Of a DNA stretch of 64,000 bases, positions 478 through 57,344 are shown one piece after another. Numbering within the stretch: the stretch's first letter is position 1; every line of letters starts with the position of its first letter. The stretch is from a virus (lineage: Duplodnaviria > Caudoviricetes): IMG/VR virus record IMGVR_UViG_3300028048_000092, positions 42,680 to 106,679 of that record; one strand, 5' to 3'. The notes below the pieces were generated by a model, which saw nothing but the letters and a program-made list of their open reading frames with translations, was not told where the DNA came from and made no database searches. A program made the translations under genes and the position numbers.

Positions 478-685
478 TAAGTGCGGAGTTGTCTTAAATG
501 ATAAACAGCAGGAGGGTATCAATGTTAGGTTTAGATCTTCCTGGCCAGACTATCATCTTGTATTATGCAGTGAGTGTTTCAAGGAATTCGCTAAGCTAGA
601 AGAAACTTTTACAGCTGCGCAAAGAAAGCTCGAGAACAGCAGTTGCAAAGAGATGGCTCAGCATATTCTGGAAAAAGAGGAATAA
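452..685 (+). CDS. small zinc-finger-like protein
   Basis: CDKC...CSEC pairs, RBS GGAG, ends TAA. Confidence 0.65.
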   Translation: MIRDIAFCDKCGVVLNDKQQEGINVRFRSSWPDYHLVLCSECFKEFAKLEETFTAAQRKLENSSCKEMAQHILEKEE

Positions 686-1263
686 TGGGAGATGAAAAAA
701 GTCAGAAGTCGTTGAATGGTATGAAGTTACTGATACTCGACATGGATGGTGTAGTAAATCGAGGTGCTGATAATTGTTCCCCTGACAGACATATCTATGA
801 TGATAGATTTTCTCATGTAGTACCTATGCAGAACGGTAAGGGTACCTGTGAGCTTACTTATGTGGACCCTGAACTGGCTAAGCGTGTAAGTAAGCTTATA
901 TCTGATTATGATCTTTATATAGTATCAAGCTCTACCTGGCGCCTTTATTATAGTCAGGAGGAGTTTAAAGAGCTTCTTACTCTTAGGGGACTGCCGGGAG
1001 AACGTCTTGTAGGATATACACCTAATCTTTATAGAGACAGCTCTTTCTTCGGTGGAGGCTGTCCCAGGCGAACTGAGATAAGGGCCTTTATGGAGCATGC
1101 TGAAGAAGAATTTGGCTGGGATATTGAATTCTATGTTATCTTAGATGACGATCCTTCGGCAAATTATGATACAGAAAAAGGCAGGCTCTTCTTAACGGAC
1201 TTCGATAAGGGCTATGATGCGGAGATCGATAAGGAAGTGAGAAAGTACTTGGATGAAAAATAA
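685..1263 (+). CDS. HAD-family phosphatase (Swiss-Army-knife RNA repair type HAD)
   Basis: Motifs LDMDGVVN, IVSSSTWR, YVILDDD; ATG at 685 after GAGGA. Confidence 0.8.
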   Translation: MGDEKSQKSLNGMKLLILDMDGVVNRGADNCSPDRHIYDDRFSHVVPMQNGKGTCELTYVDPELAKRVSKLISDYDLYIVSSSTWRLYYSQEEFKELLTLRGLPGERLVGYTPNLYRDSSFFGGGCPRRTEIRAFMEHAEEEFGWDIEFYVILDDDPSANYDTEKGRLFLTDFDKGYDAEIDKEVRKYLDEK

Positions 1264-2267: not shown

Positions 2268-2639
2268 ATGGCACTTTAGAAAATCAGTTCGGTGAGAGCA
2301 GCCGCTCTCCTCGTCGCCACTGCAACCAATGTCTCCGATTTCAAGGACTCGAAAGAGTACCTGTTACAGGAGATATAGAGAGCGATGGTAAAAGGAGATT
2401 CTCAACTGGGAGTATATGAGTAGGCTGTAAAAGGCCTGCTCTTGTAGTACCCGGGAGAGGATAAGGAAGCTCTCACTGAACAAGTGATAAACCGTCTGTA
2501 GAAGGACTTACCGAAGTTCTATCAGAAGTCCTTGAAAGTCTATAGATGGCTCAAATGGGGGCTGCTCCCCGGAATGGCTTTAGCCTTTGGCTGCGGGATC
2601 CTGTGTGGATTCTGCTGCAAAGGGTTGGGGCTGTTCTGA
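2268..2639 (+). CDS. hypothetical protein with C-terminal membrane anchor (TAG=Glu, 123 aa)
   Basis: RBS AAGGAAG, ATG 2268, five in-frame TAG, TGA at 2637-2639; absent from the standard-code track. Confidence 0.7.
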
Positions 2640-2732
2640 ACGCAGTTATACATATTAGAGCTGGATTTCGCTTGCCCCGGGGAATTGGCCCCCGAATGCC
2701 GCGAACCAGCTTTATTTGTTTACCGTCTCAGT

Positions 2733-2781
2733 GTCTCTAGGCCAAAAGAGACGTCGTCCTGAGCAAGACGTTAAAAGGCTC
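2733..2781 (+). ncRNA. hairpin plus H-type pseudoknot RNA element
   Basis: GTCTCT/AGAGAC stem; CGTC/GACG stem whose loop GAGC can pair with downstream GCTC. Confidence 0.45.
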
Positions 2782-2844
2782 CGCGCTTTTTCCTTAAGAG
2801 GGCCTCTTCTATTTTGTTTTTCTTTTTATTTCCTTATTGTTTTG

Positions 2845-3600
2845 TAGAAGAGACTCTCCTAAGGCGAAAGCTAAAGGCTTCAGTTCACCAGAGCCTGCAA
2901 TAATAATCTGGCGAACCGGTCCTGCCGAGGCGAGCGAAAGCAGTTTCGGCTTTATAAGGACAGACCGATGCATCCGGTCAGGAATACAAAAGATGCCCTA
3001 GTGCTGCAGGTCAAGCACCCCAGACAGAAAGGGTTAAAATCGCAGTTGCTCTGGAAGCCTGATAAGCTTTCCCGTGGATACTTCCATTCGCGGACTGGAA
3101 GGAGGGACAGAAGAAAGGAATGTCAATTCTCTCTGAAGTCCAACCCGAAGAGCCGCCTTAAGTGGCATGAGCTGTATCACGCAGCACAAATGTGACGGGA
3201 CTTCCGGCAGATCCGGAAGGAGCTGAGAGGCGTTGTCCGGTGATGCGGACATCTGGCCAGCCCAATGGGGCGACACATGGAAGATTCGTATTCCATGTTG
3301 CGGAGGAACTGACGAGGCAGTGGTTCCTTCTGCAGTCCGAAAGGTTGAGATACCTGTAGGATGTTTGATGTACAGTCTCAGTACATCAACGACAGCAAAG
3401 CAAAGGAGATACAGAGGAGCTACACTTCTCTGATGTTGAAAGAAGTTTCGGGAAACATTCTATGAGTACAGGCTTTGACAAGCCAAAAGGCTCCGGATGC
3501 CAACTGAAATGTATTTTGACGAATAGCAGCAAGGTTCTATCAAGAGCTAAGCTGTGATGTAGATCAGGGAGCTGCCATATTGGGAAGGAGGTATGGCAGA
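2845..3600 (+). ncRNA. large structured ncRNA, GOLLD/ROOL-like (about 750 nt, ends approximate)
   Basis: No credible ORF; dense short GC-rich hairpins (CTTCCGG/CCGGAAG, TGTCCG/CGGACA, CATGGAA/TTCCATG, TTGATGTAC/GTACATCAA, CTGCCATA/TATGGCAG); AGCCAAAAGGCT element; next to a tRNA-like gene. Confidence 0.6.
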
Positions 3601-3611
3601 TCCTTTCTTAT

Positions 3612-3693
3612 GGGGCTGAGAAAAGTTTCGACAGCATGGAAAGCCAAAGTGCACCTGTCTGGACCCCCGGGGCAGTACCGGGCAGCTCCACCA
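3612..3693 (+). ncRNA. minimal tmRNA-like RNA (tRNA-like domain only)
   Basis: 5' GGGGCTGA...TTCGAC, 3' GGAC-CCCGG-GGCAGTA-CCGGG-CAGCTCCACCA; Ala-type G3.U70 acceptor stem; encoded CCA; no tag ORF. Confidence 0.8.
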
Positions 3694-3716
3694 ATTAAAA
3701 CACTAAGGAGGAAGAA

Positions 3717-3962
3717 ATGGAACTTAGAATCAGTAAACACGATCTGGGTGGAACTCATATAACTTTGACTAAAGCTAGTATAGGTTGTATTGAGAGAAAA
3801 ACTCTTAATAGAGTTTTAAAGAGGTTCGGCAAGCACTTACAAGTAGAGGAAGAGCTGTGTGATAGTGTTACATATGCTATACGCGGCTGTGTCCCTACAG
3901 TTAACTGGCTTTTTGAAGTTACATGTAAGTTCCCTCATATCAAAGTTGTAAGAGAGCAATAA
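3717..3962 (+). CDS. hypothetical protein
   Basis: RBS AAGGAGG, no TAG, ends TAA, followed by a hairpin. Confidence 0.7.
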   Translation: MELRISKHDLGGTHITLTKASIGCIERKTLNRVLKRFGKHLQVEEELCDSVTYAIRGCVPTVNWLFEVTCKFPHIKVVREQ

Positions 3963-3964
3963 TA

Positions 3965-4000
3965 AAGGCCTCCCAACTAAGGGAGGCCTTATCTCTTTTT
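3965..4000 (+). terminator. intrinsic terminator
   Basis: AAGGCCTCCC-aactaa-GGGAGGCCTT then T-run. Confidence 0.75.
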
Positions 4001-4026
4001 TACATAGCAGCCATTCCAAGCACCTT

Positions 4027-4058
4027 CTAAAAAGTTCCTTTATTATTGGCATAATAAG
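4027..4058 (+). promoter_or_regulatory. putative phage promoter CTAAAAA-N13-TGGCATAATAAG (second copy)
   Basis: Matches 2145-2176; immediately upstream of the tRNA-like RNA. Confidence 0.6.
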
Positions 4059-4061
4059 ATG

Positions 4062-4120
4062 GTGCTGAGGTAAAGGTGCCATAGGAGAAATCCGAGAGCC
4101 GGGTCCGATCCCCGGAGCAC
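4062..4120 (+). ncRNA. anticodon-less tRNA-like small RNA
   Basis: GTGCT/AGCAC closing stem; T-arm CCGGG-TCCGATC-CCCGG; GGA-GAAA-TCC tetraloop hairpin where the anticodon arm should be; own promoter and terminator (4127-4158). Confidence 0.5.
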
Positions 4121-4176
4121 ACTTAAGCTCCCTTATGGGAGCGCCCTATTTCTTTTTTACACTGTAGGTAGATTAT

Positions 4177-4623
4177 TCAGCGCCCGGGAGTGTCATATTC
4201 AAGTTCCCATCCAAGGGACTATATCTTATCTTTTTTAGCTGGGTACCATAGGCTGTTCTGGTCATTTTTAATGTAGACAACACCCGGAGCTATATTTGCA
4301 GGAGGAGTTCTGAGTCCCCATGCACCTGCGTTTCTATCATAGAGCCCTCTTTCAGGATTTAATATAGCCACCTGTTGCTTTCCCCTGAGATGTGGATCTA
4401 CTTGCTTTCCCCTGAGATGCGGATCTACACTGGCAGCAGGGGATTTATATCCTGCTTTTCTTGTATTTTTCCGGCTTGCTTTCTGCTGTGCTTCCCATTT
4501 TGCAGCGCCGTTGACTGCTTGTCCCCAGGGCTACCAGATTCTAGTAGTTCCCTTTTCAACCGGAGCGTTCCCAGCTGAATATGTTGCAGCTATCTTCCTG
4601 AGTGTCTCTTTGTAAGTATGCAT
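4177..4623 (-). CDS. hypothetical, probable internal virion protein (TAG=Glu, 148 aa)
   Basis: MHTYKETLRKIAA leader; two TAG; 27-nt tandem repeat encoding VDPHLRGKQ twice; ends TGA. Confidence 0.7.
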
Positions 4624-4648
4624 AATAACCTTTCGCGTTACACTTCAA

Positions 4649-4661
4649 GGGGGGGGGGGGG
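4649..4661. repeat. G13 homopolymer, intergenic
   Basis: 13 consecutive G about 25 nt upstream of the minus-strand start at 4623. Confidence 0.9.
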
Positions 4662-4673
4662 CACGTAAAAGGC

Positions 4674-5891
4674 TTATTTTAGAGGCTTGAAAGAAGGTAC
4701 CTTTTTAATAGTGCGGATCACCTGCTCCCCGTAAATGCCCATTGTACATTCAAACTGCCTGGGAGTGCCTTTGTATTTGGGACACCATAAGTAGTCCTTA
4801 TGATCGAAGTTGAAGCGCTTGTCATCCCAGCACCCATTGCACACATTGTAATTTATCACTCTGTAAGGAGTATAAAACTCGCAGGAAGGCAAGGAGAATC
4901 CTGAAATAAGAACTACAGGCACCCTGCAGCACCATGCCAGCCAGGACATCCCTGATCCAAGTCCTATAAAGAAGTCGGCATCTTTTATAAGGTTTATCCT
5001 CTATTGCAAAGGCAAAGCTCCCGTAGCGTCCTCCACTCCCCAGGGAACATGGTTCCATATAAGTCCATTCCCGTAGTTTCTATCTTTGTTTATGCAGTAG
5101 ACCTTATATCCCTCTTCTTTAAGAAATCTTATGACAGAGTCCCATCCACAGGGATTGTTCCAGTGCTTTGTCTGGGAGCTTGCCTGTGTGGATATGACAC
5201 AGTACTTCTCTTTTATCTTTCTTTTTGCGGAAAGGTCTACTCTCGGTGGAATATCTTCATCCGATACATCAAGTATATGTGCAGCTGTCTTATGCAGTCC
5301 GACTTGTCTGAAGTCAATAGGCTGCCACTAAGTGTTCCCTCCGAAGAACAGCCCCATGTAGTAAGTAGCATAAGGCTTCAAATCAATGTTCTCTTTAACA
5401 GAATAAAAATAAATATCGGGATACTGCTTCTACAGAAGCTCCTTTATATGGCCTGGCATAATGCAGTGCAGTCTGCAGTGATGCTTCTGCTGGAATCTCT
5501 ATACATAAGAGAACCATCCCAGAGTATCTCCTATGGCGCCGTCGGGGAAGTTTATCACAACGTCCTTCTGAGAAGCATCGTAGGTATGGGTAAAGAGGAT
5601 CTCTTTCCTGTCAGGGGAAAGTATCTGCAGCTTATAGTTGATGAAGTACATTTTGCTGCTGAACACTTTTCCACCTGCTTTTACAAGCCCGTTGTAGAAG
5701 ACCGTCCCGGTGTCCTGATCTGTAAGGGTGAACCAATGGTCTCCGCTGTCCTTGGGGAAGCTTATTCTAAGTCCCTTGTTGAAGTCATATTTAATGCCCT
5801 CTACAGCTTCCATGGTAAACTGGGAAGGTACCTGCCAGTACACCGGAGGTTTTACAATAGGTGCAGGGGAGAGGGAATCGGAAGTCGACAT
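4674..5891 (-). CDS. TibC/Aah-like autotransporter O-heptosyltransferase (TAG=Glu, 405 aa)
   Basis: GIKYDFNKGLRI, GDTLGWFSYV*RF, QPIDFRQVGLH, PLQ*RINL, FIGLGSGMSWLAW, CNGCW...CP...FEC cysteine cluster; standard-code pieces 5499..5891 and 4674..4949 are in one frame. Confidence 0.9.
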
Positions 5892-5987
5892 ATAAAGGCT
5901 CCTGTTTGATGTTTTGCTCTAAGTGATGTATACAAGGAATATACGCATTCGCGTATAAGTATAAAGGAGAAAGGGAAAGTAGGGCTT

Positions 5988-8900
5988 ATGGCTGACAGCA
6001 GCTTCTGGAATATAGGAAATATAGAATATCCTGTAATACAAGGACAAGCGGGAAAGCCCTTCTACCATTAGCAAGGTCCTCTCATACAGTTCGGGTAGTA
6101 GCTGGTCGATAACAGCTGCCTTTGCAAGTACAGATATGCAAGGTACTTTGCTTACTACTGTGCAGTTCCTTCAGACAGCTCTTCCATAGCCTTTTTCAAG
6201 AACTTCGAGCAGGTTCCCTGGGAAGGGGGGCATAATATAAAGTTCCTTGATTATACCCAGGAAACAGCCAAAGGTTACCAATGGGGAATGTTCAAAGGAC
6301 CTGTATATCTGGGCTGCTATCCAACGGGTCACTTTACTACAGGGAAGTGGCTTCCGGTGGAGCTTCCCTATGAGAATGTTTCATAGGACCTTAATGTAAC
6401 TTCTCCTTCTCCTTATTATATATATTAGGAAAATGAGGACTACAACTACTCCTTGAAGTGCATGATAGTAAGTTCCTATTAGTGCTGCAATGGGGAGGAG
6501 GGCTGTGGAGTAGAAGTACAGAGAGGCTAGTACTTTGAAAGCTCTTTCCCATTCTGCTATGCATAGTTCTTTGTAAGTAACCTTGATGCAAGCGATGCTT
6601 CTCAGGTAACAGCTGCTCTTATAGAAGGCTCCCAGGGATGTGTATGCACTCCTCCTTACAGGATGCTTAAGAAGTTCTAGCAGTACGATTGCTCTACAGC
6701 TACTATAAGGGTATTCAAGTAGATGGTGCTTCTTCCAGAAGAACTCGACAGATGCTCTTAGTTCTGTCCCTCCTGCCAATAGGAGCTTCCTGCTTTAGCT
6801 CCCAATGCTGCTTTTTTAGCTAAGAAGGATTGTGTTTATTGGGTTTTATGGAAGTTCCCCCTTCCATAGGACTGCAGTGATTGTTCCAAGACTTTACATA
6901 AGATATAGTGGCAGTTGGTAACGGATTATAAAGATATCCCCGGGGAAGTTGTAGGGAAGGGGCCTGGGTGGAAGCCCCTGAGTTTCCATGATCCTGACGA
7001 GACCTTTACATACTGTGAATAGGAAGCTCCTGGAAAAGTCATCTTCCAGTGGCAGTATGTAAGGAATCCTCAGCCTTCCCAGGGAGAGATATAGGGCAGC
7101 CGCCCCGCTGTAAAGCCCGATGAAAACCCCTGCAAAGAATACTGCAGGAAGAACCCTCTGGCAAGGCCCTCCATATCAGACTCTTTGTCAGGTGCCTCCG
7201 ACAGTACTTTGTAGAAGCACTTTCCCTGCAATGAGCCCTAGCCTCCTCCTATGAAGTACAGAGAGTTCCTCCATACTGAGTTTGATGTATATGAGCTGTC
7301 ACTTCGAGTTACTGTCATTACAAGAGATCAGGTGAAGGAGTGCTATCAGAGCTATAAGATAGATACTCCCTTATAGGACTGGCATTGGAATCTTATTTAG
7401 AATGCTGTCTATGATTATCAGCTTACAAGCTACTTATATGGTACTTCCTTTCGGGGGACTGAAGTAAAGAACGGCTTTATCCATAAGTATGTTGTGCAGT
7501 TACATGGAGAAGAGCCTCCTGAAGATCCTTCCGGGGAGTATCAGGGAGACGACTTCGACATAGTAGCTGATGGAAGCTCCTACAACTTTGTCGATAAAAG
7601 TCAGAACCTTTGTCAGTATGCTTATCAAGTTTATTTAGCAGAGAAGTGTAAATGCTTTGGTGATTGTATTTCAGACTCCCGTTCCTGCAGCACATCAAAT
7701 CAGAGTGAATATATAAGTGGCTGGGGGTGCTCCAAATGGCAAAGTCTTGGTCAGCATTCTTAGTATTAGATAAGAAAGGAAATGCGGTTCTGCCTGGATA
7801 AGTGGAGCCGGAACCCGGAAGAGTCTGTACACAAGTAGTGGGTTTATACTACTTTGTCTGATGATCCTTATTTCTGTGAATAGTATCCCCAGCCACTTAA
7901 AAGGGGGATTATCTACGATAACTATGTATTTACACCAAACTGTTCCGATTCTACAAGTATAGTGGTATCTTTCCCTTTTGTTTCTTATCCCTGGTGTGGA
8001 AAACAGCCAAAAGCTTATTAGGGATATAAGGCATAGGACAGCCTATCCAGCTCCACTTTACTTCAAGTAGTGGACAATGTAATAGATCTTACCAATACAG
8101 ATCCTCCGATATGTACCGTATATGGATTTATTGATCCTCACAAGGTGGCGGTTTGGCCAGGGTTTATTTCAGAGCGGCCTGTGCGACCAGCGCCTTGCTG
8201 CGGAGAAGAGGCCTTCTATTCCGATAGCTGTCATGCTAAGGGCAAAATTTATTAGCCTCCCATTATAAAGTGGCCCAAGTCCTGTTTGTAGCTTCCAGCG
8301 TACGGAGTGAGAGTTTATATAGCTGCTTTTGGACATGCCTGGCCTGGGTTCATTTCCACGTAGAAGACCGTTGATTCCCAGACTAAGTACTATGTAAATG
8401 CTTCCAAGTTCCTGCAGTACTTCAACTGTACCAAGCAGTCTTAGCTGTAGTTCTATTAGGAGCTCCCATCGTAGTACCCTGAAGGATGGGATCCGCCTTT
8501 CTCAGGCTTCTATCAGACCGATTATCTTCCTGCAAAGGGTAACTGGTGCATGCCTCCCATAGGCTTCTTCAACTAGCTGTCCCCTGTGAACTTCAACCAG
8601 GGCTCTATAGCTTAGTGGGCAGGAGGTTCGGGAAAAGTCCTTTTGTATATATTCTCCGGGCATGCTTCCCGCTGCTAGTCACAGTTAGAGGTCGGCATAA
8701 GAGCACTTGCAGGGAAGAACATCGGCGGCAGAAAAGCTATAGGCGTCTAGATCCCCCTTAACAAGAAAGGGGCAGGAGATAACGGGACCATAGCATATTC
8801 TTATGATTGTGTTGATGTCAATCAGTTTATAGATCCCAATAGTGAGTACTATCATAAAGGTGTCTTATAGAGAGCCTATGAGAATCAGGATATAACAGGG

Positions 8901-10154
8901 TTCGTTGCCAATGGGTTTGTAGATGGTATAGATGCTTAGCTCTGCAATCGTATAGGAGGAAGCTTCCCCGGAGGAGCCTGCAGCAATGTGGAAAAGTTCC
9001 TGAATGAGTAGGAACTTCGTTAGCTGTTTGGTTCTGCTGCTGCAGGAAACTGGAACTCTCATTTCTTCACTTATGCTGATTTGAACTATCCGAAGAGTCC
9101 TTTCGGAAAAGCTTGCGCAGACAGTTATATAGGTGTCTCCGGGAGGACTGGGGGCAAAAACGCATCTTCACATGATGTTGCGCTGCTGATGCGGATGCAA
9201 AAACTGCCCAAGGCAGCTTCCAGGACAGCCTGGTATATCCAGAACTGCTATGTGACCTTTTATGACTAGGATGATGGATCTGAGATCCTTCCCGGCTGGC
9301 CCTACAGGGTGTATGATCAAGCTGTTGACTTTGGCTATTCTTTTTGTGTGGAAGGCTCTCCTTCCCAGATAACTTATCTTATAAATACGACAGAGAGCTT
9401 TACACCCTCTGATTAGGATGTATTTGCCGCGCTTATTAATGGCTCAAGAACTACATTCCACATATAGATACCTCCTTATCTGGCAGGAGAAGGGCTCTCT
9501 CCAACGGATCTTACTAGAAGTACTTTTCAGCTTGTATCTGTAAGGGACAGCAGGAAGTGGCTGAGCATTTCTGCTTCCACTTGGGATGGACGTTGCTATT
9601 TGGATGCTTACGGCGGGCTGCAGGTTACTACTGCAGATAACGGAAGCACTACTTGGAATTGTGAAACGCAGACATGTTATTGGGGATAGCAAACTACAGG
9701 AGATTGTGTTATTCCCACATTGGATATACTGCCCCACGGGGATTGCGATACAGAAACAGGTACCGTAGGCAGAAGCGGCTTTGGCAGATACCGCAGCCTG
9801 CTTAAAAATGCTTCTGACTCCGGTTATGCTCTAGTAAATACTTCCAGTATGCGTTTCTGTGATCTTCCTTAGGGGGTTTTTGCTGCGTTTCTTATAAGAG
9901 CCTTAGACAATTGGTACGACTTTCCAAGCAGCTATGCAAGGGTCTGTGATCAGAATTATTATAGAGCATCCAAAGATTGTATAGTCATACCTGTTCCCGC
10001 TAATCTTGAGGAGGGCGACTAGTATACTCTCAGTATAACTCATGATCTTTCAGATAGCACCACTTATGAATAGGAAGGAGATACTAGTTATCGTAAGTGC
10101 CATGTATAGATATAGCAGAAGTTCATTTTCCACTTGCCGACATAGTGGTACTGA
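5988..10154 (+). CDS. very large Cys-rich protein, probably structural (TAG=Glu, about 1388 aa)
   Basis: ATG 5988, fragments 7494, 8070, 9081 and terminal TGA 10152-10154 share one frame; dozens of TAG; not checked codon by codon. Confidence 0.65.
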
Positions 10155-11778: not shown

Positions 11779-12426
11779 ATGGCCGACAAAAACATCCAAC
11801 TTAAAGACAGAAACGAAAATCTTCTTTTTCCACGGGTAAAACTTACCAATGCTGTAAATGACATTGGTTTTATTACTTCGGCGGAAGTCAGCAGCAATTA
11901 TGCTACCAAATCGGAGATCGCTGACATCATCTCTGCAAAACTCAGCAGAGTCGTTGTCGATGCTCTCCCGACAGAAGACATCCAGACCAACACCATCTAC
12001 ATGGTCCCAAACGGAGGAAGTAACTCCTCCAACGTTTACACCGAATATCTCTACACTAACAACAAGTGGGAGATCATCGGAAGCACCGATACGGACCTGA
12101 CCGGTTATGCTACCGAGACTTATGTCAGCAATTATGTTGCTTCGCAGGGCTTTGCCACTGAAACTTATGTCAGTGACTATGTTGGCTCTCAGGGCTTTGC
12201 TACTCAGTCCTGGGTCACCAGCCAGAATTATGCAACTGAAAGCTATGTGAGCTCCACCTATGCTCCGATCAGCAATGCTGCTCTCGAAGGCACCCCGACC
12301 GCTCCGAATATCACCAGCGAGTCCTCCGGAACTCAGATCGCAAACAAGAACTATGTTGAAGGCTATGTCAACGACATGTTCCTTGCGCAGAACCTTGTTT
12401 ACGTCGTTCTCTCCGACTCTCTGTAA
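11779..12426 (+). CDS. tail fibre-like repeat protein
   Basis: VVDALPTEDI..NTIYMVP..YTEYLY..WEIIG, ATETYV repeats, ALEGTPTAP; no TAG. Confidence 0.8.
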   Translation: MADKNIQLKDRNENLLFPRVKLTNAVNDIGFITSAEVSSNYATKSEIADIISAKLSRVVVDALPTEDIQTNTIYMVPNGGSNSSNVYTEYLYTNNKWEIIGSTDTDLTGYATETYVSNYVASQGFATETYVSDYVGSQGFATQSWVTSQNYATESYVSSTYAPISNAALEGTPTAPNITSESSGTQIANKNYVEGYVNDMFLAQNLVYVVLSDSL

Positions 12427-19508: not shown

Positions 19509-19795
19509 TGAGCGGGACACTGGGAGCGATTCGCCGGGAACGGCAAAGAAGGGAAGAAGTTCTCCGCAAGGCTCAGGCGGAAGCCGATAAGCGGCAGTCT
19601 CTTGAGCTGAACCGCGAGGCTGTCATTGCGGAGATTTGCGAGGCTTTCGGCTGGACGGAACTGGATGAGTTCGCCCGGAAGATGATCGATGACGCTTTCG
19701 CCGGGCAGCTGGTAGACGTGAAGCAACTAAAAAAAGACCTTGCCAAGTGGAAAGAAGAACAGGAGCATCCGCAGGAGTCTCCGAAGGAGGAATAA
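19508..19795 (+). CDS. hypothetical protein
   Basis: Coupled ATG; Glu-rich yet TAG-free; higher GC than neighbours. Confidence 0.65.
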   Translation: MSGTLGAIRRERQRREEVLRKAQAEADKRQSLELNREAVIAEICEAFGWTELDEFARKMIDDAFAGQLVDVKQLKKDLAKWKEEQEHPQESPKEE

Positions 19796-19796
19796 C

Positions 19797-21215
19797 ATGC
19801 CACTGTATCATCACCAGGTTAGCACTTCTGATGTATATGTACCAACAGGGAAAACCATGCCTACAGGGGCAGTGTTCTATGCGCCGTTATCGTCTGCGTC
19901 TGCGACGGCAGCGACCGGGCAGACGTTAACGGCAAAAGGGACTGCTACATATCAGAATCAACAAGGCATCAACTGCGTTTATTTTAATGGAAGTTCTTCA
20001 TATATTTACATCCCTGAAGCCCTTGCCGATACCTTTCCTGGGTTAAGTTCCAAAGATACCTTAGCTTATTGTTGCTGGTTCAACACAAAAAATAAAAATG
20101 CCGGCCAGGAGATAATCTCTTGTACAGAGGGTGGGGGGTTTAGTATTGGATTAAATTCGGACGGCAATTCGGGTTATATGCATATTTATGTGATGGCAGG
20201 TGGTTCATATTTAAATGAGAATATTTGTCCCATTTCCAAGGTAAAACAGGATCAGTGGATGTTTATATGCGTTAATTATAACGGAAGCACTGTTGATGTA
20301 TATTTAGATAACGAGAAGGTAAATTCTTTTAATAAAACTGGGAATCTTGGCATGCCGAACAACGCTCCTTTGGCGATAGGAGCAGAAAGCGCGGATCTAT
20401 CTACGACGTTTTCTTCTGATTGTTTCAATGGTTATATATCTTCCGTGCGCGTCTACGACCGTGCCTTAACCCAATCGGAAATTACCACTCTATCGCAAGA
20501 GTTTGCCCTTGCCGTGGAGACTTCCGGCTTCGATGAGCTCGGCCATCCGGTGCAATATGATTCTGCCTTTGATGCTGGGTGTTCACTTTCTTACAGCTGG
20601 GTAGACGAGAATACAATATTATATATTCCTATGTATGGTAATTCTCCTTTTACCGATAAAAGTCAGAATCAATATTCAGTAACGAACAATGGTGTAACTG
20701 CTGTGACTAATGTCGCACCTCCTTCAGGAGGAACAGGGGCTGGATACTTAAATTCAACAAACCACTATCTATATACAGGAATTAATATCCTCAACGGTCT
20801 GACTACTTTTACGCTTGAGTTTGATTTCAGGCTGACACAAATCCCCAGCGGGGGAAATGACTGGGACGACGGCTATTACTTCGCTGCCAACGGGAATAAT
20901 TACGACAATCCAGGATGCGACATGTATTTTGGAACCTCTCAGATTGTTCTTAATTTTGACAACTATAATAATCGGGTTGGAACTTCTTATACACCCGATA
21001 CGAATTGGCACAACCTTAAGATAACACGAGATTCATCTAATCTGGTATCCGTTTACATAGACGGCGTATTAATAAACAGCTATACCCGTTCCAATAGTTT
21101 TTACTCTGGTTCGTATGGCTTCGCGATCGGCAGAGTAGAGCCGCAGGGAGAAACCGGAGGTGCTGGTTTCCATGGGTATATAGCAAACTACCGAATTTCT
21201 AATATTGTGAGGTAA
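19797..21215 (+). CDS. double LamG domain adhesin
   Basis: Two LamG-like domains (FNGYISSVRVYDRALT; FHGYIANYRISN); RBS GGAGG; no TAG. Confidence 0.85.
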   Translation: MPLYHHQVSTSDVYVPTGKTMPTGAVFYAPLSSASATAATGQTLTAKGTATYQNQQGINCVYFNGSSSYIYIPEALADTFPGLSSKDTLAYCCWFNTKNKNAGQEIISCTEGGGFSIGLNSDGNSGYMHIYVMAGGSYLNENICPISKVKQDQWMFICVNYNGSTVDVYLDNEKVNSFNKTGNLGMPNNAPLAIGAESADLSTTFSSDCFNGYISSVRVYDRALTQSEITTLSQEFALAVETSGFDELGHPVQYDSAFDAGCSLSYSWVDENTILYIPMYGNSPFTDKSQNQYSVTNNGVTAVTNVAPPSGGTGAGYLNSTNHYLYTGINILNGLTTFTLEFDFRLTQIPSGGNDWDDGYYFAANGNNYDNPGCDMYFGTSQIVLNFDNYNNRVGTSYTPDTNWHNLKITRDSSNLVSVYIDGVLINSYTRSNSFYSGSYGFAIGRVEPQGETGGAGFHGYIANYRISNIVR

Positions 21216-45007: not shown

Positions 45008-48000
45008 ATGCCCACTATGTCTCCTAATAAGGTTGTATAGAAGAATGCCCAGGACTGGGTACGCGATTTAAGATTCTCCAATCAAGTCAATATGCAGACT
45101 ATGGGAGTGGACACCGACCGTGTAACTCCATAGCTCCTTTTAGCTTCCAGCAATAAACTTCTCGGTATCTCCAGAGGAACTACTTAGGGAGACATGAAGG
45201 ACTCCCTTCAGTTCCAGCGCTTTTACGGACCTGTAGAGTACTTTGCTGAAAGGATCCAGAAAGATGGCGGCAGCGTAGCCAGAAGTATGCTCTGGAAAGC
45301 AACTAACAGAGGCAACTTGGACTTTATCGGTTCAGGTTCTCTGCAGCCGCATGTAAATGCAGTGTTCCATGAAAGTAATCTTTCCCAGTTCGTAGACAAT
45401 ACAACTCCTTTGGATGGGATAGACAACTCCCAGAAAGTAACCCGCATAGGCGAGGGCGGACTCAGCGATGAAGATTCCGCGCCTATCGAGATGCGTCTTG
45501 TGCAGCCCTCTTATTATGGTTATGTAGATCCGGTAAGGTGCTACGATGATAAAACAGAGATCTATACTAAAAAGGGCTGGAAATCAGTAACCGAAATGTC
45601 CCTGGAAGATGAGTTTGCTGTACTTATTGATGGTAAACCTGCATGGAGCAAACCCATCTCTCTTCAGAACTTCGATCATGACGGTCTGATGTACTGCTTT
45701 GAGAATTGCTATATCAACTTCTCTGTAACTCAGGGTCACCGTATGTATGTCTCTAAGGAAAAAGGCGGTGAGTATGGTATAGAATTTATTGATAGTCTCT
45801 TTGGAAACTCCAAGTATGTGCTTTGCGGTGCTAAGAAAGCCTCTGTTGTAGATGAAAAACAGAAATGGTTCTATCTGCCCAAAGTTGATCAGGTGGGAAC
45901 TGTAAAGAACATAGACAAGCTGGATATAGTTGATTTTGCAAGATTCATGGGCTGGTATCTCAGTGAAGGTTCCTGTGATCTTTCCCACTCCGGTTCAGGC
46001 TCCATTGATTACAGAGTCCGTATCACCCAGTCCCCTGTTCTTCATCCGTAGAACTACGAGGAAATAAGAGACCTTGTAGAGAAGCTTCCTTTCGGCGCCC
46101 ATCCGAAGCATTACTGGGAAGCCAACAGCTCCGATATAACCATCAAGAGAAAGCAGCTCTATTACTATCTGGAACAGTTCGGAGGTTCTCTTGACAAGTT
46201 TATTCCTGATTGGATCTTTACAGCTCCCACAGAAGCCAGATGGGCCTTTGTAGATGCTATTTTAAAAGGCGACGGCAGCAACCAGAGAGATCTTAATACT
46301 ATTTCCAAGAGACTTGCAGAGGATTTTGCCAGACTTATGTTCGAGTTGGGGCAATCTGTAAGAATAATCTCTTCCCAGCAGACTTATATCGGAGTCAATG
46401 GAAAGCAGGCAGGTCTTATTTATCAGATTACCTGGCACAAGCGCTATGAACATAAGCTGGAAGCCAGAAAGAGAAAAGACCGCAACAGCGGCAAAGGTTA
46501 CTACACAGAATACTATAGAGGCAAGGTCTATTGCCCGACAGTCCCTGGCGGCCTTGTATATGTAAGAAGAAAGAACTCCAAAGGTTTCTGGTGCGGGAAC
46601 ACCGCGTAGAAGAGCCCCGGTATTACAGGTTACCTTACCAAGAATGTAATGAAAGGTACCGATGGCAAACTTTATCAGAAGTTCATCAATATGCACACAG
46701 GGCAGACCTAGATGCTGGATGCCCAGACAGCCGCCAAGAAGATCATCACCACCAATGAGTATCTGGACTCTAAGGATGATTATGTCTATGCAATTGGAGG
46801 ACCGAGAGGTCTGAGAGTGGTAAAGCGCAGCGACGTTGATTATATCCTGCCGAATGCGGATGATGCTTTCTCTGCAAACGCTAATGCGGTTCCCATGCTG
46901 TCAGGTATCAAAGCTATGCGGCTTCTCATGGGATGCCACCATCCGGAAACTCCTATAGCTGTTATCGACAAGCATGGTTATACCCATATAGTCCCTGCCA
47001 AGAGAGTGGGGCACATGGGACCTGTATATGTCTTCGGCTGCGATGAAAAGGGTATCGATCAGGTATATCCTGTAAGAAAAGTCGTTACCAGAGTGCCTGC
47101 CAAGAAGAGCAAGTTCAAGAAAGTCATTCTTGGTTCCGGCAGAGTGCTGCTAACTTCTGCTGAACATAAATGGTGGACTTATCAGGAAGGCTTCAAGCTT
47201 CTGCAGGCAAAGGACCTTAAGGAAGGCATGCTGGTTCCCAGAAGCCTCTTTACTTCTATGCCCGTGAGACTCACTGAAATAATGGGAGTCCCTGTTACAA
47301 GAGAGATCTGTGTCTTTATGGGACGCCTGATAAGAAGCCTTAAAGCCACCAGCTACAGTTATCGAGTCACTTATGTGAAAGACAGAGACAGAGGTATCGA
47401 CCAGAAAGTAGATATCCTCACAGCTTTGGAGCAGCTCGGCATAAAGAATTATAATGTATTCAGTGCCAGAGGGCTTCATGCAGTATCCATAAAGGATCCT
47501 GTTTTCCAGGATTGGGTGGATCAGAATATAGGTGAGCTCCCAGAAGACAGACGCATTCCAAGCGCCATTCTTTCTCTGCCGGAAGGATATACCAGTATCT
47601 TCCTGGATTCTTATTATAAAGATCTTGAAACTGTTGGTGAAGATGATCAGGGAGATACCTGGCTTCTCAGCATCGCCAATCCTGCCTTGAGAGACTCTCT
47701 GAGTTTTATGCTCAATAAGATCTATACAGACACAAAATATAGAGACGTTACCAAGAAGGATTATATCCACAGGGCCCTGCAGCTGTTCCCTGCAAGCACT
47801 TCGCTGGGAGATATCGTATTGGAGAAGATAACTAAGATCCTTGATGTCCAGGCTCCTCCGGTAATGATCGATATAGACTGCGACGATCATGTATATGCTG
47901 CTGCCAATGGTATTATTACACATAACAGTAAGTATGTAAGTCAGGCAGTTCCTTTACAGTAGCGGGAAGCTCCCCTTGTGAGAAATCTGGATGCTGCCAC

Positions 48001-51000
48001 AGGTATGGATATGGATACCAAGCTGGGCAAGCTTCTTGGTACACAGTGGGCTCCGAAGGCCGGTATGGTAAAGGCTGTTAGAGAAGATCGTATAGATATG
48101 CTCTATGATGACGGTACTACAGGAAGTGTTCCTCTTTATAAGAACTTCCCGGCCAACGCTAAAGGGTGGCTGACCAATTATCCCAAGGTAAAAGCAGGAG
48201 ATAAAGTTGCTTAGGGGCAGCTTCTGGCTACATCCAATTATACGGATGATAATGGAGTGCTTGCTATGGGAAGAAACCTCAGGATGGCTTATATGAGCTA
48301 TCATGGAGGTACCTATGAAGATGCTACTACTATTTCCGAGTCTGCTGCCAAGAAGCTTGGTTATACTACCATGTACAAGACAGACATGGATAAGGATAAG
48401 AATATAAGAACCGCCAAGCATCTTTATACTACATGGAAGCCCGGACAGTACTCAAAAGAGCAGCTCTAGAATCTGGATGATCAGGGAGTTGTAAAAGTCG
48501 GGGCTACTCTGCATAAGGGAGATCCTGTGATTCTTGGCATACGCACTACAGAGCCCTCTCCGGGGACACTTGGCAAAAGGATCCTTTCCGATGTTACTTA
48601 GGTGTGGTAGCACGCCAACCCAGGGATAGTTACAGATGTCGTAAACGGAAAGAACGGTATCAAGGTCTTCGCCACAGTAAGCAGTCCTCTCAGAGAAGGA
48701 GATAAGCTGACACAGCTCTATGGCGGGAAAGCAACTATCGCACAAATTATTCCTGATGAAAAGATGCCCAGAGATGCTAAGGGAAGGCCGTTAGATCTTT
48801 TGTTCGATCCTCTAGGAATTGTAAGTCGCTGTTACGATGTGTAGACGGAATTTCTTACTAGATAGGGATGGAAACTGGGTAAGGATGTAAAGGGTTCCGA
48901 TGAGCTCCTTAGTTGGGATCTCAAAGCAGAAGGCTTCTCTTATCTGCCACAATAGTAGTCTTTCTATAAAAAGGAATATAAAGGCACCATGTATAAGGCC
49001 TCTAATAAGGAGGTTTAGCTGCAGGTGACACCTAAACATAGAGTGGCCTATAAATGGCCCGGCTAGGATACAGTCAGATAGGGCTTTATAGAGGATATCT
49101 GCGGAAAGAGCTGCTATCTCCCCAAGAGAGAACTTATTAACGGTAAAGAAGAAACCAGTTGGCAGCTTATCAGAAGTACTGACTGGTCTTAGGTAGATTA
49201 TGAAGGCACTGTTTATTGTCCTACAGTAAGTACTGGATATGTTCTTACCAGAAGGAACGGCAAGTAGATAGTAGCACATAACACCAATCCTTCCCAAATG
49301 ATGTAGGCAGGGCTTGGCAAAGTTGCTATGAAGACAGGCACTCCTATTGTAGTTCCTGCTTTTATGCCCAAAGGACAGTCCAGGTTAAAGTATGTAAAAG
49401 ATCTGATGAAGGCGAATAATGTTCCCTGGAAAGAGGATGTCTATGATCCCGATACTGGAAGGACCATTAAGAATGTCTTCACAGGTGTAATGTATTTCCT
49501 TCCCTTAAAGCACATTGCAGATACTAAAATGTCTGCAAGAGGAACTGCACAGTACACCGCTTAGCAGGTTCCCATGGGAGGCGGATAGTAGGGCTGCTTC
49601 CCAGCGATGCAAAATATTATAACCTTGCATGGGGAACAGAGTATTGCACATATTTGTGAGAAGAAGATTCCTGAATATGTGATGTCTTGGGACTAGGAAC
49701 GTAAAGAATGGCGCTGGAAGCAGATCACTGACTGGTTCACTTACAGATCTAAAGTATAGAATATCCTCAATATCTTTACAGAGAACTCTCTCAGTACTTA
49801 TGGTGGTAGGAATAAAGTAAAGCATACCAACTCTTCTTATCCCACTAAGAACCATAAGATGTATATGGCGGATGGTTCTATAAAGCTTGCAGGAGAGCTT
49901 AAAGTAGGGGACTACTTGGCTGGTATTGGTTGCCAGTATACCGAGGATCAGCTGCAGGCTCTTTATGGTACTCTTATGGGAGACTCCAGTAGAGACTCAC
50001 AGGGTGGTATCCAGTGTATGCATTCTGTAAAGCAGTCTGCTTATATCAATTACAAGAGAGATATCTTTGCGGCTGTTGGTGCCAGTAGAGTAAGTGACCC
50101 CAAAGAAGTTAAGGGCGGTGTAATGGGCAGAGATGGGGTTTGGAAGGAGTATAAGCCTACAGCTGCTATCCGTATGCAGGTTCCTAAGAGCTATTATGTA
50201 TAGAAAGCCCTTTAGCTTACTACAGATAGTGCAGGAAAGAGACATCTCACTGCTCCTGTGTTGGAAGCAATGGGAGAGTTTGGGTTCTGTTTGTGGTTCC
50301 TGGATGATGGTAGTATAACCAATCAAAGAAAGCCTACACATCACATAGATCAGCCATAGGCTAGAATAGCTACACACAGCTTCTCTGTAGAGGAAGTAGA
50401 AGAAGCTGCTAAATGGTTATAGAAGAATCTACTTCATGTAGAAAATGGTACTCATATAACTATCTATAAAGGAGTATATGATCAGGATCAGCCTTGTTTG
50501 AATTTCCATAGGAACGCTAGTTGGTAGATTGCAAGAATAATTGCTAAGCACATTCCTTGGGAAGTTATTCCTGATTCTAAGACATGGTTGAAGCAGTACT
50601 GTAAAGGGGTCCAGGAAAAGACTCCCTGTGTAAAACACAACTTTAGGAGTCCTCTTGGTATAGTGCCATTGAAGATCAAAGAGATCAAGCCCTATAAGCA
50701 CGACAAGCCAAATGTGACTGAAGTCAATGTCTATGATTTTACTGTGGAAGACACTCATAATTATACACTTACAGGCGGTGTAAGAGTGTCTAATTCGAAG
50801 CGCATTGGCAATTTAGAGGTCAGTGGTCTTGCAGGCCACAACGCTTTCAACTTCCTCCACGATGCCAAGCTTATAAGAGGACAGGCCAACAGTGACTTCT
50901 GGCGCTCCATAAGAACAGGCCAGATCCCTACAGTCCCCGGAGAACCTCTTGCCCATAAGAAGTTCTTTGCACACCTTCAAGGCTCCGGTATGCAGATAAA

Positions 51001-54000
51001 GAGAGACAATTAGGGCTTCACCATCTTTGCTCTCTCCAATAAGGATGTAAATGAACTCGCAGGCTCCAGGTAGCTTAAATCCACAGATACTTACTAGCAG
51101 AAGAACTTCCGCCCCATAGCAGGGGGACTTTTCGGCTAGGACATCTTCGGTCCTTAGGGAGATAAATGGGCTTACATACAGCTCGACAGTCCTCTGCCGA
51201 ACCCTGTGATGGAGGAGCCTCTTGCAAGACTTCTCGGAGTCTCCGATACTTAGTTCTAGCAGATAGTCCGTGGAAAAGGCACTCAGAAGGGACTTCGCAA
51301 TGCTTCCGATATGAAGAAGGTTCTCTCCAAGATGGACCTCTAGAGGGAAGCTACCCGTGCCCTCATGGACTTTAAGACCAGTACCAAGTCCCGTAAAGAC
51401 AAGGCTCTGAAGAAGTATGTAGCTATAGCAAGGATGAGAGACGCCGGGGTACGCCCATAGGAGTACATGCTCGACAGGATCCCGGTGCTTCCTCCAAAGT
51501 TCCGCCCGATAACCTCCCATGGAGGTCTTACCATGGTGGCTGACAGCAACTATCTCTATTCCCAGCTTCTTAATGCAAGGGACGATTTGAGGGCTGCAAA
51601 GGATCTCCCTTAGGAGTACCAGGAAGAAGGGCAGTCAAATCTCTACCAGAAGTGGAAAGAGCTGGTAGGGCTGTACGATCCAAGCGATGTGAAGTTGAAG
51701 GCCAAGAATGTAAAGGGGCTGCTGAAGTGGGCGCTTGGGAAGAGTCCCAAGTATAGCGGATTTATGCAAAAGGTCCTTGGGAGCACAGTGGATACGGTTG
51801 GAAGGGGAGTAGTTATTCCCAGTACCAAGATAAAGTTGAATGAGATCGGGATGCCTGTATAGATGGCATGGCATTTATATTCGCCATTTGTAGTAAGGAA
51901 GCTGGTACAGCAGGGATACACTCCAGTGGATGCTATGAAGCAGGTCAAAGAGAAGCGCCCAGTGGCGGAGGAAGCTCTTTCTGAGGCTATTAAGGAAAGA
52001 CCTGTGGTTATGAACAGAGCGCCATCTCTGCACAAGCTGTCTCTTATGGGGTTCAATGTGAAGCTCACTAACGGGCACGCTCTGAAGGTAAATCCTTCAA
52101 TAGTAAGTCCTTACGGAATGGACTTCGACGGGGATAGCATTAAATCGTTGATTTCCATAGACTTACGACGTGAAAATCTGCCAAATATAGCAAAATGGCA
52201 AAACAATGTCGATTAGAATTCGGACTTGACAAATAAAAAAGATGGATATAGATTGTTTATGAAAGAGGAAAAAGGTACCTCGAGTAATAACAAGTAGAGA
52301 AAGGAACAATCTATGTTCAGCAAAAACACCAAAATGGAACTTGTACAGACTGTAATGGAACTCTCTGAGCTCCCTGTTGTAGAAGGGTCTGAAGTCAAGA
52401 AATCTGAAACAGTAACTGAGTGGGATGTAAAGGAAGGGACCTATACTAGTACCATTGATCCGGTCACTGGAGACATCGTCTATGCACCTATTACTAAGGT
52501 CTCCAAGCATGAAAATTTGAAGATGTTTGATATCAAGCTCGCTATCAGCTCCTCCTATGACCACATGGTCACAGCCTCTGAAGACCACAGCCTGATTACC
52601 CTTAATCCTATGACACTGGAGCTGGAGAAGACTCGCCCGGAAGACTCTAAAGGGCGCTGCGTTCCTATGACCAGACATAACAAGGGCAACTCTGCTAGAG
52701 AAAATGGACAAGGCATTTGCACTGAGCTGCACTTTCCCTCCGGTACTTATCAAATGTCCTACGAAATGGGACTTTTCCTAGGTCTTATGGTAGGAGATGG
52801 ATGGGTATCCCGTCTCGAAACCTCTCCCATAATTCAAGTTGCTTGCTGCGAACCTTCTTTGCAAGAAAGAATAAAAGAGCTGTCCAAGAGTGCTAATATG
52901 CCCTTTACCAAGGAAGCTTCCTTCGGTAGCTATGAAGCAGATGAACAGAGATTCTCCAAGGATAATATGCAGCGACTTACCTTCTTTATGGATCAAGACG
53001 ACAAGCGCTATATAAATGATCTCATTGGACACGGTGCTGAGAATAAGAGAATCCCGTATCCCAGTTTTATGTCCAGCAGGACACACATGCTAGGCGTGCT
53101 CATGGGATTACTGGCCACAGACGGTGTAGTTTCTCACAGGCCTCCAACTAAGGGTAAAAAATCTCCCTGCAAGAGTATTGCCTATCATACTGTCAGTCCT
53201 GTTCTTAGAGATGGGGTACAGGAACTTGCTCATAGACTCGGAGTAAAAACTTCTGTCACTAATTATATAGGTACAACATCTGGTAATTTGACCTATATGG
53301 TTAACTTCTGTCTTGAGGATATGGTTCGCCTTTATGATAGTAATAAAGCTCGCTTTGTTGTACCAGTATCTTATAAGCAGGAAGCTATGGAAAGAATCGC
53401 AAGAGATTTCCACGATAATATGAAAGCAGACTGTAGTAAAACGTGGACATCTTATGATATTGTTCCTTTCCCCAGAGGTGTCTTCTGTGAGTTTAGTTGG
53501 GCAAAAATAGAAAGTCTAGCCAAAGACGTTGTAATTAAAGGCAGAGGAAAAGGCTTTATTAAACGGTGCGTTGCGAAGAGGATTGCGGATGCTCTTGAGA
53601 GACGTGATTGGAGTATTTATAAAGATCCTACATATATCAAAACTTCAGATCGTACCCACCACACCCCCGAAGAAGCCCTTGCTCTTGTGAACAAATGGAT
53701 CTCCATGGTCCGCAACGAGGACATTGGCTGGGAAGTTGTGGAGGATGTAACTCCTTCCACTTGCACTGAAGGCTGGGACTGCACTGTGCCAGGGCCCTAC
53801 ACTTTCTCCCTTTCCACAGGAACTGTTGTACAAGACACCGTAAACATCCACGTCCCTGTCTCCAAGAAGGCTGTACAGGATGTACGCTAGAAGATGATGC
53901 CCGAAAGGAACCTCATTTCACTCCGCAAGGGCAAGATTCTCTACGGGCCGTAGAAAGCTTATACACAGGGACTTTACGTAGCTACCAGAATGGGGGACGA

Positions 54001-56681: not shown

Positions 56682-57344
56682 ATGAAAAAGAAATCGTATT
56701 TCAAAATGTTCGGGCTAAATAAGAAAGCCACTACACCCACAGAAGAGATTATTGCTAGTCATGTCTCATCTGCTATCCCCTATGTTGCTTATGTAAACGG
56801 ACCTGCTGATCTTGCTGGCAGAATTATAGGAGATAATACTTCAACCAAAGATTATGATGATAGTGCACTGGGTTATGTCCCAGGTATAAGTGCTTACAGA
56901 GTCCAGCGCCGTCGCGCAGAAGCTGCCAAATTGCTTGGTGCGGATAAAACGCAGCAGGTTAATTAGTTTCTTGGCGGGCTGACAGGAACACTTCTTGGAG
57001 GCGGGATTGGAGGTGGTGCCGGAGCCTTGCTAGGTAAAGCTATCGGGGATGCTTCTAACGTAGAAGATGGTGGCACTGCAGGCGCCTTAATGGGTGCAGG
57101 TATCGGTGCCGCAACCGGAGCTATTGCACCGCACCTAATTGCTGCTCTTGCAGCGCTTATTAAACGTCGTCGCACAGCAGCGGAACAGAAAGAATATGAA
57201 CAGAATGGCGGTGTCGGTAACTATCTTATTCCTGGTATGGCGACATATAATGATTATAAATCTAAAGGCTTCTTAATGGGTGATGAATATAAGCAGCTCA
57301 GATAGAAAGCTCACGGGAAGAATAAGAAAGCACCTTCCAAGTGA
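56682..57344 (+). CDS. glycine-zipper probable virion protein (TAG=Glu)
   Basis: MKKKSYFKMFGLNKKA leader; GGGAGALLG / GALMGAGIGA zippers. Confidence 0.75.

Follow-up and report, generated by a model that had tools for sequence, protein, structure and literature searches.

Phages whose genetic code differs from that of their host have been seen to read only TAG as glutamine or TGA as tryptophan, a limit for which the proposed reason is that the host glutaminyl-tRNA and tryptophanyl-tRNA synthetases (GlnRS and TrpRS) tolerate suppressor anticodons; in the TGA-recoded Jade phages the code-change module consists of a suppressor tRNA, TrpRS and release factor 1 (RF1) (10.1101/2021.08.26.457843). 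Later phage papers likewise give TAG as glutamine, and tRNA introns have been noted in recoded jumbo phages. Here we describe a 64,000-nucleotide stretch (the window) from a phage of the Caudoviricetes, comprising bases 42,680–106,679 of the contig in IMG/VR record IMGVR_UViG_3300028048_000092, in which TAG is read as glutamate in the late genes. An earlier note on this DNA had centred on positions 2640–4160 of the window and on the machinery that would have to supply a glutamate-carrying tRNA with the anticodon CUA, hereafter tRNA(CUA).

Like the Jade module, the system considered here joins, in a phage of a standard-code host, late genes with a reassigned stop codon to a suppressor tRNA and a cognate synthetase encoded in the standard code, the latter two being found in relatives of this phage; it differs in codon (TAG), in amino acid (glutamate), in that no release factor was found, and in that the genes for the tRNA and the glutamyl-tRNA synthetase (GluRS) lie about 70 kb apart in a complete relative, designated G002, and are both missing from the present contig. 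With the phages that use code 15, in which TAG is glutamine (crAss-like, Lak and phAss-1), it shares in-frame TAG codons in late or structural genes and the avoidance of TAG as a stop, and many genomes of that group are similarly devoid of a recognisable suppressor or synthetase; the difference is that TAG aligns here with conserved glutamate instead of glutamine. A stop codon read as glutamate is also found in the nuclear code of peritrich ciliates (NCBI table 30, TAA and TAG both glutamate). That code is eukaryotic, genome-wide and extends to TAA, whereas in the phages TAG alone is affected, only in viral late genes, and the GluRS is of the bacterial type. In an incomplete literature search we found no report of phages that read TAG as glutamate or encode a GluRS/tRNA(CUA) pair.

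TAG is read as glutamate in the late genes

The IMG/VR record consists of one 106,679-bp contig without terminal repeats, placed in the linear class, for which CheckV gives a genome completeness of 57%; about 43% of the genome is therefore unseen, and the absences reported below hold for a fragment. Coverage of the contig by open reading frames (ORFs) of at least 100 codons was 77% in the standard code and rose to 97% with TAG read through. The first ~44 kb of the contig carry ~65 plus-strand genes in which in-frame TAG is nearly nil (6 codons in frame, against 192 and 124 in the two other frames), and the late genes from window position 5988 onward contain 347 in-frame TAG codons, or 2.05% of their codons. 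As is characteristic of a recoded stop codon, TAG in frame is limited to the late genes and is unused as a terminator, the delimited genes all ending in TAA or TGA. The window is the junction of a standard-code early module and a late module with TAG as glutamate, and positions 2640–4160 fall precisely on the switch between the two.

The identity of the encoded amino acid was examined first in a ligase-like protein. Searches against PHROGs and Pfam left the majority of the late proteins without a name, and a GNAT protein returned a single match in a word-based homolog search; for the ligase-like protein (436 amino acids, window 57341–58648, 23 TAG codons) a library of 1.84 billion proteins contained 1,234 relatives. 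The best 150 of these were aligned with X at the TAG sites, and residues were counted in the 146 sequences below 60% identity. Glutamate accounted for 142 of 146 residues at position 233, 141 of 146 at position 330 and 99 of 146 at position 82. Pooled over all TAG columns of the ligase, the residues were E 942, D 337, K 336 and Q 235; in a likelihood comparison over 22 TAG columns glutamate was best, with aspartate behind by 1.4 nats and glutamine by 5.3 nats. Part of the glutamine counts stems from relatives that databases had translated with TAG as glutamine; one example, P0002, has Q at most of the TAG sites of this phage, yet a real glutamate at position 330. The columns are thus dominated by glutamate, two of them at 97% in the 146 homologs, and TAG does not fall on conserved glutamine as code 15 would have it.

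Codon usage agreed with the alignment. Glutamate codons decreased from 8.2% in the early genes to 4.15% in the late genes, with glutamine codons steady at 3.4–3.7%, and in genes with 5–7% TAG glutamate fell to only 1.4–1.9%, lysine being at 9–12%. In a comparison with a TAG-recoded relative whose proteins are ~77% identical (L004), TAG was paired with GAA or GAG 23 times and with CAA or CAG 6 times; between paralogs within the contig it stood opposite glutamate 8 times and opposite glutamine once. Solved RNA polymerases and the LigD phosphoesterase, when aligned, gave the same answer at single conserved positions. The premise of the earlier note, that TAG specifies glutamate, is accordingly supported by four tests (homologs, composition, codon exchange and paralogs) and holds for the late genes of this phage. 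A search of viral contigs with the ligase translated with TAG as glutamine gave no match, probably owing to the Q residues at TAG sites in the probe peptides.

Decoding parts in the contig and in relatives

The earlier note had reported neither a tRNA(CUA) nor a release factor or synthetase in the window. For tRNA(CUA), release factors and Glu/Gln-tRNA synthetases this was borne out, and a tRNA scan and profile search, which it had proposed for the rest of the genome, extended the absence to the whole 106.7 kb of the contig. With introns allowed or not, ARAGORN identified neither a tRNA nor a tmRNA, whether in the window or in the full contig; a relaxed run over the whole contig (ps80) yielded 48 noise calls, none of them with a CUA anticodon, and other relaxed settings (ps60, mitochondrial mode, tmRNA mode) produced noise only. 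Nothing tRNA-like emerged when 5-bp stems closing a 7-nt loop with CTA at its centre were sought. At gathering scores there was no Rfam match within the window, and in the rest of the contig a single odd tRNA-like element scored above the tRNA threshold (contig 11975–12057, 36 bits), which ARAGORN did not call at its default threshold and which has a perfect acceptor stem, T arm and encoded CCA, an almost absent D arm and an extra hairpin of 26 nt. It is ruled out as an amber reader, its anticodon loop CUUAUAC containing no CUA. The hairpin at window 4127–4142, taken with the T-arm-like pairing CCGGG/CCCGG at 4101–4117 as possible tRNA exons, was likewise rejected: no cloverleaf could be formed, and ARAGORN with introns was negative.

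Six-frame searches of the contig with hidden Markov models, in which control models responded in 11 to 14 of 14 genomes, showed that tRNA-synt_1c (Glu/GlnRS, PF00749), the only synthetase family searched, was absent, as were the RF-1 and PCRF domains. A tblastn search of the contig with the GluRS of G002 gave no match. Neither the contig nor the complete G002, in which the RF-1 domain was likewise absent, contained a release factor 2 (RF2) or anything bearing on RF1, though RF1 inhibitors were not searched for. Of the components of a code-change module, the contig therefore carries neither a suppressor tRNA nor a cognate synthetase nor a release factor sparing the codon (RF2).

Both an amber tRNA and a GluRS were found in relatives. 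G002, a genome of 192,052 bp that has terminal repeats and is rated 100% complete, encodes proteins 45–70% identical to those of this phage and is recoded in the same way, with TAG read through from 16 to 125 kb and present at the invariant glutamate of the ligase. By protein synteny the present contig corresponds to G002 from 171.7 kb, through the ends, to ~76 kb. The GluRS gene of G002 (19,635–20,705, minus strand) is an ORF of 356 amino acids with no TAG, matched by PF00749 at 142 bits in a six-frame search; it lies in a minus-strand cassette directly ahead of the first big tail gene, the place equivalent to window 2640–6000. Its scores against family models were 202.9 bits for TIGR00464 (gltX_bact), below the curated cut-off of 289.95, 109 for GluQRS and 24 for GlnRS, and the class I signature motifs HIGN and PLSKR are present. 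The protein is a member of a compact clade of 13 sequence clusters (354–385 amino acids), whose nearest cellular GluRS are 31–37% identical over the catalytic part only.

In the alignment a ~48-residue insertion is gone from the G002 enzyme and the C-terminal domain is ~70 residues shorter, giving a protein smaller by ~110 residues in total through deletions. An AlphaFold (AF2) model with a predicted local distance difference test score of 92.9 superposed on the non-discriminating GluRS of T. maritima and on that of T. thermophilus (Z 31–32, root-mean-square deviation 2.7–2.8 Å), with 351–352 of the 356 residues aligned over chain residues 1–468. Judged by this model, the G002 protein is a minimised yet complete GluRS that keeps the C-terminal helical domain. 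That the short enzyme might lack an anticodon-binding domain was considered and ruled out, the modelled domain being shortened but still there. In three other contigs, of 177, 64 and 32 kb, members of the compact clade adjoin tail genes rich in TAG; the synthetase is present in L040, L043 and L044 as well as in G002. The clade had no member among GenBank phages (best match 29.5% identical), and in an IMG/VR scan with the compact-GluRS alignment it was confined to G002, other hits being at most 48% identical (at most 37% over more than 100 residues).

ARAGORN with introns allowed places the tRNA(CUA) gene of G002 at 90,597–90,924. It runs in the opposite direction to the late genes, is separated by 7 nt from a tRNA-Met(CAU) and lies ~18 kb past the ligase gene. 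It is interrupted between anticodon nucleotides 35 and 36 by a 252-nt insert with the marks of a group I intron: an exon-final U, an insert-final G, a guide GGAG pairing with CUCU, and the core motifs GUUCAGAGACUA and GAUAUAGUC. The Rfam model Intron_gpI (RF00028) scored 31 bits on the insert (E 7e-6), below its gathering score of 50. A search of metagenome contigs with the neighbouring capsid-region protein returned 12 gut loci, 8 of which have the tRNA(CUA) and tRNA-Met pair in the same place. Three of these eight alleles are intron-less and identical to the predicted ligated exons, which fixes the mature sequence and makes the intron optional.

The insert belongs to a mobile intron family found in phage protein genes. 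It shares with the group I introns of cyanobacterial tRNA-Leu(UAA) and Azoarcus tRNA-Ile the site in the anticodon loop, the U.G at the 5' splice site, the terminal G and the existence of intron-less alleles, and differs from such bacterial tRNA introns in that its host gene is a phage amber suppressor and its family also resides in phage protein genes. Introns of this family, with the shared cores AAGAAAGTGAATTGCTGG and TCTCCTAAGGCGAAAGCTA, were observed in L036:3200–6100, in L037 and at 41 IMG/VR loci, and sit in several protein genes of many phage records of 110–280 kb, with at most 3 copies per 3 kb. Twenty-two other IMG/VR records with the family contained no GluRS, and 21 of them no ligase, so they are not close relatives; the exception, G011, has a ligase without internal stops and uses the standard code. 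Another standard-code relative, G001 (113.6 kb, ligase 49–50% identical), has 12 tRNAs, none with a CUA anticodon. One tRNA of G001 (L016:3678–3749) has an irregular anticodon loop, for which ARAGORN reports the anticodon 'aa' without a type; drawn with 8 nt (UCAAACUA) the loop would contain CUA.

The mature tRNA(CUA) has G1-C72, C2-G71, U3-A70, the discriminator G73 and an encoded CCA, a D helix with U11-A24 and U13.G22, the loop CUCUAAA and a variable loop of 6 nt. The identity set of E. coli tRNA-Glu comprises G1-C72, U2-A71, U11-A24, U13.G22, the absence of residue 47, and U34 U35 C36 A37; that of tRNA-Gln comprises a weak U1-A72, G2-C71, G3-C70, G73, G10 and U35 G36 A37 U38. Against the glutamate set, G1-C72, U11-A24, U13.G22, U35 and A37 fit, and C34 and A36 differ. 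Against the glutamine set only G73, G10, U35 and A37 fit, the tRNA having A36 and A38 as well as its own first three acceptor pairs.

Charging of the amber tRNA

Reading TAG as glutamate poses a genuine charging problem, since the anticodon is normally read by GluRS. We consider it probable, though far from settled, that the lineage uses a two-part, phage-encoded machinery and that the tRNA(CUA) of this phage lies beyond the right end of the contig. Early genes, GluRS included, would be translated in the host code; tRNA(CUA), spliced where an intron is present, would be charged with glutamate by the phage GluRS; and the TAG-rich late genes would then become readable in competition with host RF1. 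The 252-nt group I intron carried by most tRNA(CUA) alleles is predicted to self-splice. For this phage, the tRNA(CUA) would be encoded in unsequenced DNA past the contig's right end: since the synteny with G002 ends at ~76 kb and the tRNA pair of G002 is at 90.6–91.0 kb, the equivalent place is ~15 kb past the contig end. The absence from the contig, the reading of TAG as glutamate and the existence and position of the pair in relatives are observed; which enzyme charges the tRNA, when it acts and that this phage encodes such a tRNA are inferred. Within this scheme the tRNA(CUA) is likely to be in the missing part, whereas a phage GluRS in the sub-lineage of this phage is doubtful.

Several observations weigh against this scheme. 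Neither tRNA(CUA) nor GluRS was seen in the 57% of the genome at hand, and the slot syntenic to that of the GluRS holds a glycosyltransferase. The closer recoded sub-lineage is known from ruminant gut assemblies and includes contigs of 158,873 bp, scaffold_109 of ENA ERZ28653446, and of 190,776 bp, scaffold_41 of ENA ERZ28655009, both partly read; among the best hits, none of the clade GluRS came from these 159-kb and 190-kb contigs. The closest relative, the 159-kb contig whose proteins are ~77% identical, stays collinear with G002 as far as 90.43 kb; the 547-nt gap after that point, the last DNA read there, contains no tRNA. Further on the contig is represented by gene maps, in which unread gaps of 808 and 661 nt could hold tRNAs. 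The tRNA(CUA) of the relatives also departs from the E. coli glutamate elements in U2-A71 and in the absence of residue 47, and its charging by the phage GluRS is a prediction. With the C-terminal helical domain kept in the model, nothing can be inferred on the handling of A36; in T. thermophilus GluRS the reader of C36 is Arg358. The phage-encoded GluRS/tRNA pair put forward by the earlier note is carried by complete relatives with TAG as glutamate, while this contig has neither part and its slot is otherwise filled; for the G002 branch the charging problem that the note raised has in principle an answer, which does not extend to the branch of this phage.

A less probable explanation, though one to be taken seriously, is that the sub-lineage has a phage tRNA(CUA) and no synthetase of its own, the tRNA being charged by a host GluRS that is perhaps non-discriminating and tolerant at position 36. 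This would account for the missing GluRS and for the lack of a phage-clade GluRS cluster tied to the 159-kb or 190-kb contigs among the best hits, and the GluRS slot is filled by a TibC-like transferase not only here but in the same cassette of L046. The 3' 23 nt of a tmRNA-like element at window 3612–3693 (see below) match Alphaproteobacteria only. Alphaproteobacteria mostly have no GlnRS and use a non-discriminating GluRS with GatCAB. Weighing on the other side are the 43% of the genome that are unseen and the dedicated GluRS kept by the relatives, which suggests that the host enzyme is insufficient. The host, moreover, is not established: when the four alphaproteobacterial genomes with the tmRNA end were searched for the relatives' tRNA(CUA), no match was convincing.

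The earlier note had also suggested a short route from code 15, in which a suppressor derived from tRNA-Gln is glutamylated by a non-discriminating GluRS, escapes amidation by GatCAB and so delivers glutamate. We regard this as improbable. GatCAB needs U1-A72, and the G1-C72 of the relatives' tRNA(CUA) would therefore be expected to escape it; in addition, the anticodon stem CGGA/UCCG resembles tRNA-Gln stems, and the tRNA-Gln(UUG) of G001 is identical to tRNA(CUA) at 50 of 76 positions. The origin from tRNA-Gln is disfavoured by the remainder of the molecule: its acceptor stem is without the glutamine set U1-A72, G2-C71, G3-C70, its D helix has the U11-A24 and U13.G22 of the glutamate type, the 50/76 identity is no higher than that to tRNA-Arg, and in G002 the tRNA is accompanied by a dedicated GluRS.

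Returning to the phage-encoded machinery, and allowing for its apparent loss in part of the lineage, we give about even weight to a combined account in which a gut-phage lineage of ~160–190 kb has a natural, self-contained TAG-as-glutamate pair, made up of a bacterial-type GluRS in minimised form and a tRNA(CUA) whose D helix is glutamate-like and whose gating by a self-splicing intron is optional, and in which a sister sub-lineage, this phage among its members, no longer has the enzyme where it is usually encoded. The enzyme-less sub-lineage would then depend on a host GluRS or on an unseen factor.

The junction at 2640–4160

The features at and around the junction are listed in Table 1.

Table 1. 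Features on both sides of the early/late junction (window positions)
Feature	Position	Strand	Remarks
ORF, 123 amino acids, 5 in-frame TAG, no family match	2268–2639	+	last ORF ahead of the gap
~970 nt without credible ORF	2640–3611		early/late junction; no Rfam family
Hairpin CGTCCTGAGCAAGACG	2755–2770		near-identical copies in G002
19-mer TCTCCTAAGGCGAAAGCTA	2855–2873	+	exact match to part of the core in the phages' group I intron family
tmRNA-type tRNA-like domain, 82 nt	3612–3693	+	no tag reading frame, no CUA, no anticodon arm
ORF, 81 amino acids, no TAG, no family match	3717–3962	+	AAGGAGG ribosome-binding site
10-bp GC-rich hairpin, T runs on both strands	3965–3990		two-way terminator-like
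Hairpin GCTCCC-TTAT-GGGAGC, then T-rich tail	4127–4158	+	
ORF, 148 amino acids, 2 TAG, no family match	4177–4623	-	
TibC-like family-9 glycosyltransferase, 5 TAG	4674–6074	-	fills the minus-strand cassette that holds GluRS in G002
First large late gene, 1388 amino acids, 51 in-frame TAG	5988–10154	+	recoded module begins

We read positions 2640–4160 as a variable slot at the junction, whose cargo differs by relative: GluRS in G002, TnpB-type genes in another relative, and a non-coding, RNA-like filling here. The sequence at 2640–3611 has no nucleotide similarity in L046, L047 or L105, which makes it a strain-specific filling of the slot; the flank at 4027–4172 is ~70% identical in L046. At the syntenic place in G002, a non-coding stretch of ~1 kb is flanked by near-identical copies of the CGTCCTGAGCAAGACG hairpin (14,939 and 15,898). 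The 19-mer at 2855–2873 also occurs within the intron of the relatives' tRNA(CUA); as the remaining intron core motifs are absent around it, it probably represents the remnant of a group I intron.

The tRNA-like domain at 3612–3693 has a 7-bp acceptor stem with G3.U70, the 5' part GGGGCTGA-N7-TTCGAC, a GGAC, a T arm CCCGG/GGCAGTA/CCGGG and the end CAGCTCCACCA with an encoded CCA, with ~46 nt between the acceptor strand and the T arm. The Rfam model alpha_tmRNA gave a weak match (E 0.003), below every Rfam threshold. Compared with the two-piece tmRNA (ssrA) of Alphaproteobacteria, the element has the same GGGGCTGA..TTCGAC, GGAC, T loop GGCAGTA and CAGCTCCACCA end; it differs in being only 82 nt long and unpermuted, and of the mRNA-like domain of a tmRNA it has none of the resume codon, tag ORF or pseudoknots. 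Its last 23 nt were found exactly in 4 of 185,579 species genomes, all Alphaproteobacteria and in permuted ssrA genes, and the domain is absent from G002. From the matching letters, the tmRNA-like 3' end is a weak pointer to an alphaproteobacterial host; the element is possibly such a pointer or a captured ssrA fragment. It was rejected as an amber reader, having no CUA and a G3.U70 that predicts charging with alanine.

It has accordingly been considered very unlikely that a non-canonical RNA in 2640–3716 helps to read TAG or protects ribosomes paused at TAG, in spite of the position of the element exactly on the code-switch junction and its intact acceptor stem, T arm and encoded CCA: there is neither CUA nor anticodon arm, alanine and not glutamate is the predicted amino acid, the stretch is unconserved in relatives that share the code, and the fold has a z-score of just -0.87. 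Least probable of all, and in our view practically discounted, is that TAG is glutamine in an ordinary code 15 with no special charging problem, as public pipelines that translate relatives with TAG as glutamine and all earlier phage reports examined would have it, since TAG stands on catalytic glutamate positions of the ligase in two phages (this one and G002), the depleted codons are those of glutamate and not of glutamine, and exchanges with glutamate codons outnumber those with glutamine codons as given above.

Further observations were made outside the slot. The TibC-like transferase of the window adjoins the tail genes, and in relatives AIDA-like proteins are encoded close by; this suggests that tail proteins are glycosylated. 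At window 45008–54100 a single ORF of 3030 amino acids with 47 TAG fuses RNA polymerase beta-like and beta'-like parts, and the version of this gene in relatives has faint matches to an intein and to LAGLIDADG. A neighbouring protein is 27–29% identical to those of Salmonella phage Arash and of Vibrio phages of ~180–187 kb, the closest phages in GenBank. Window 643–1263 encodes a HAD domain (71 bits) of the RNA-repair kind known as 'Swiss Army Knife', kept in many relatives at 55–83% identity, which served as a synteny anchor.

Public collections contain proteins of the relatives (P0002, P0063, P0066 and P0067) translated with TAG as glutamine, with Q in place of the intended glutamate, a catalytic ligase residue included; because public pipelines translate TAG in this way, the deposited proteins of these phages carry a wrong residue at every TAG site. 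The reassignment of TAG to glutamate breaks the pattern of TAG becoming glutamine and TGA becoming tryptophan in phages, and the compact GluRS and tRNA(CUA) of the complete relatives make the question of charging experimentally accessible. If the combined account given above is true, no stop-to-glutamate code would have been described earlier in a bacterial virus, and this one would come with a ready-made candidate for an orthogonal pair, which may be of interest to genetic code engineers.

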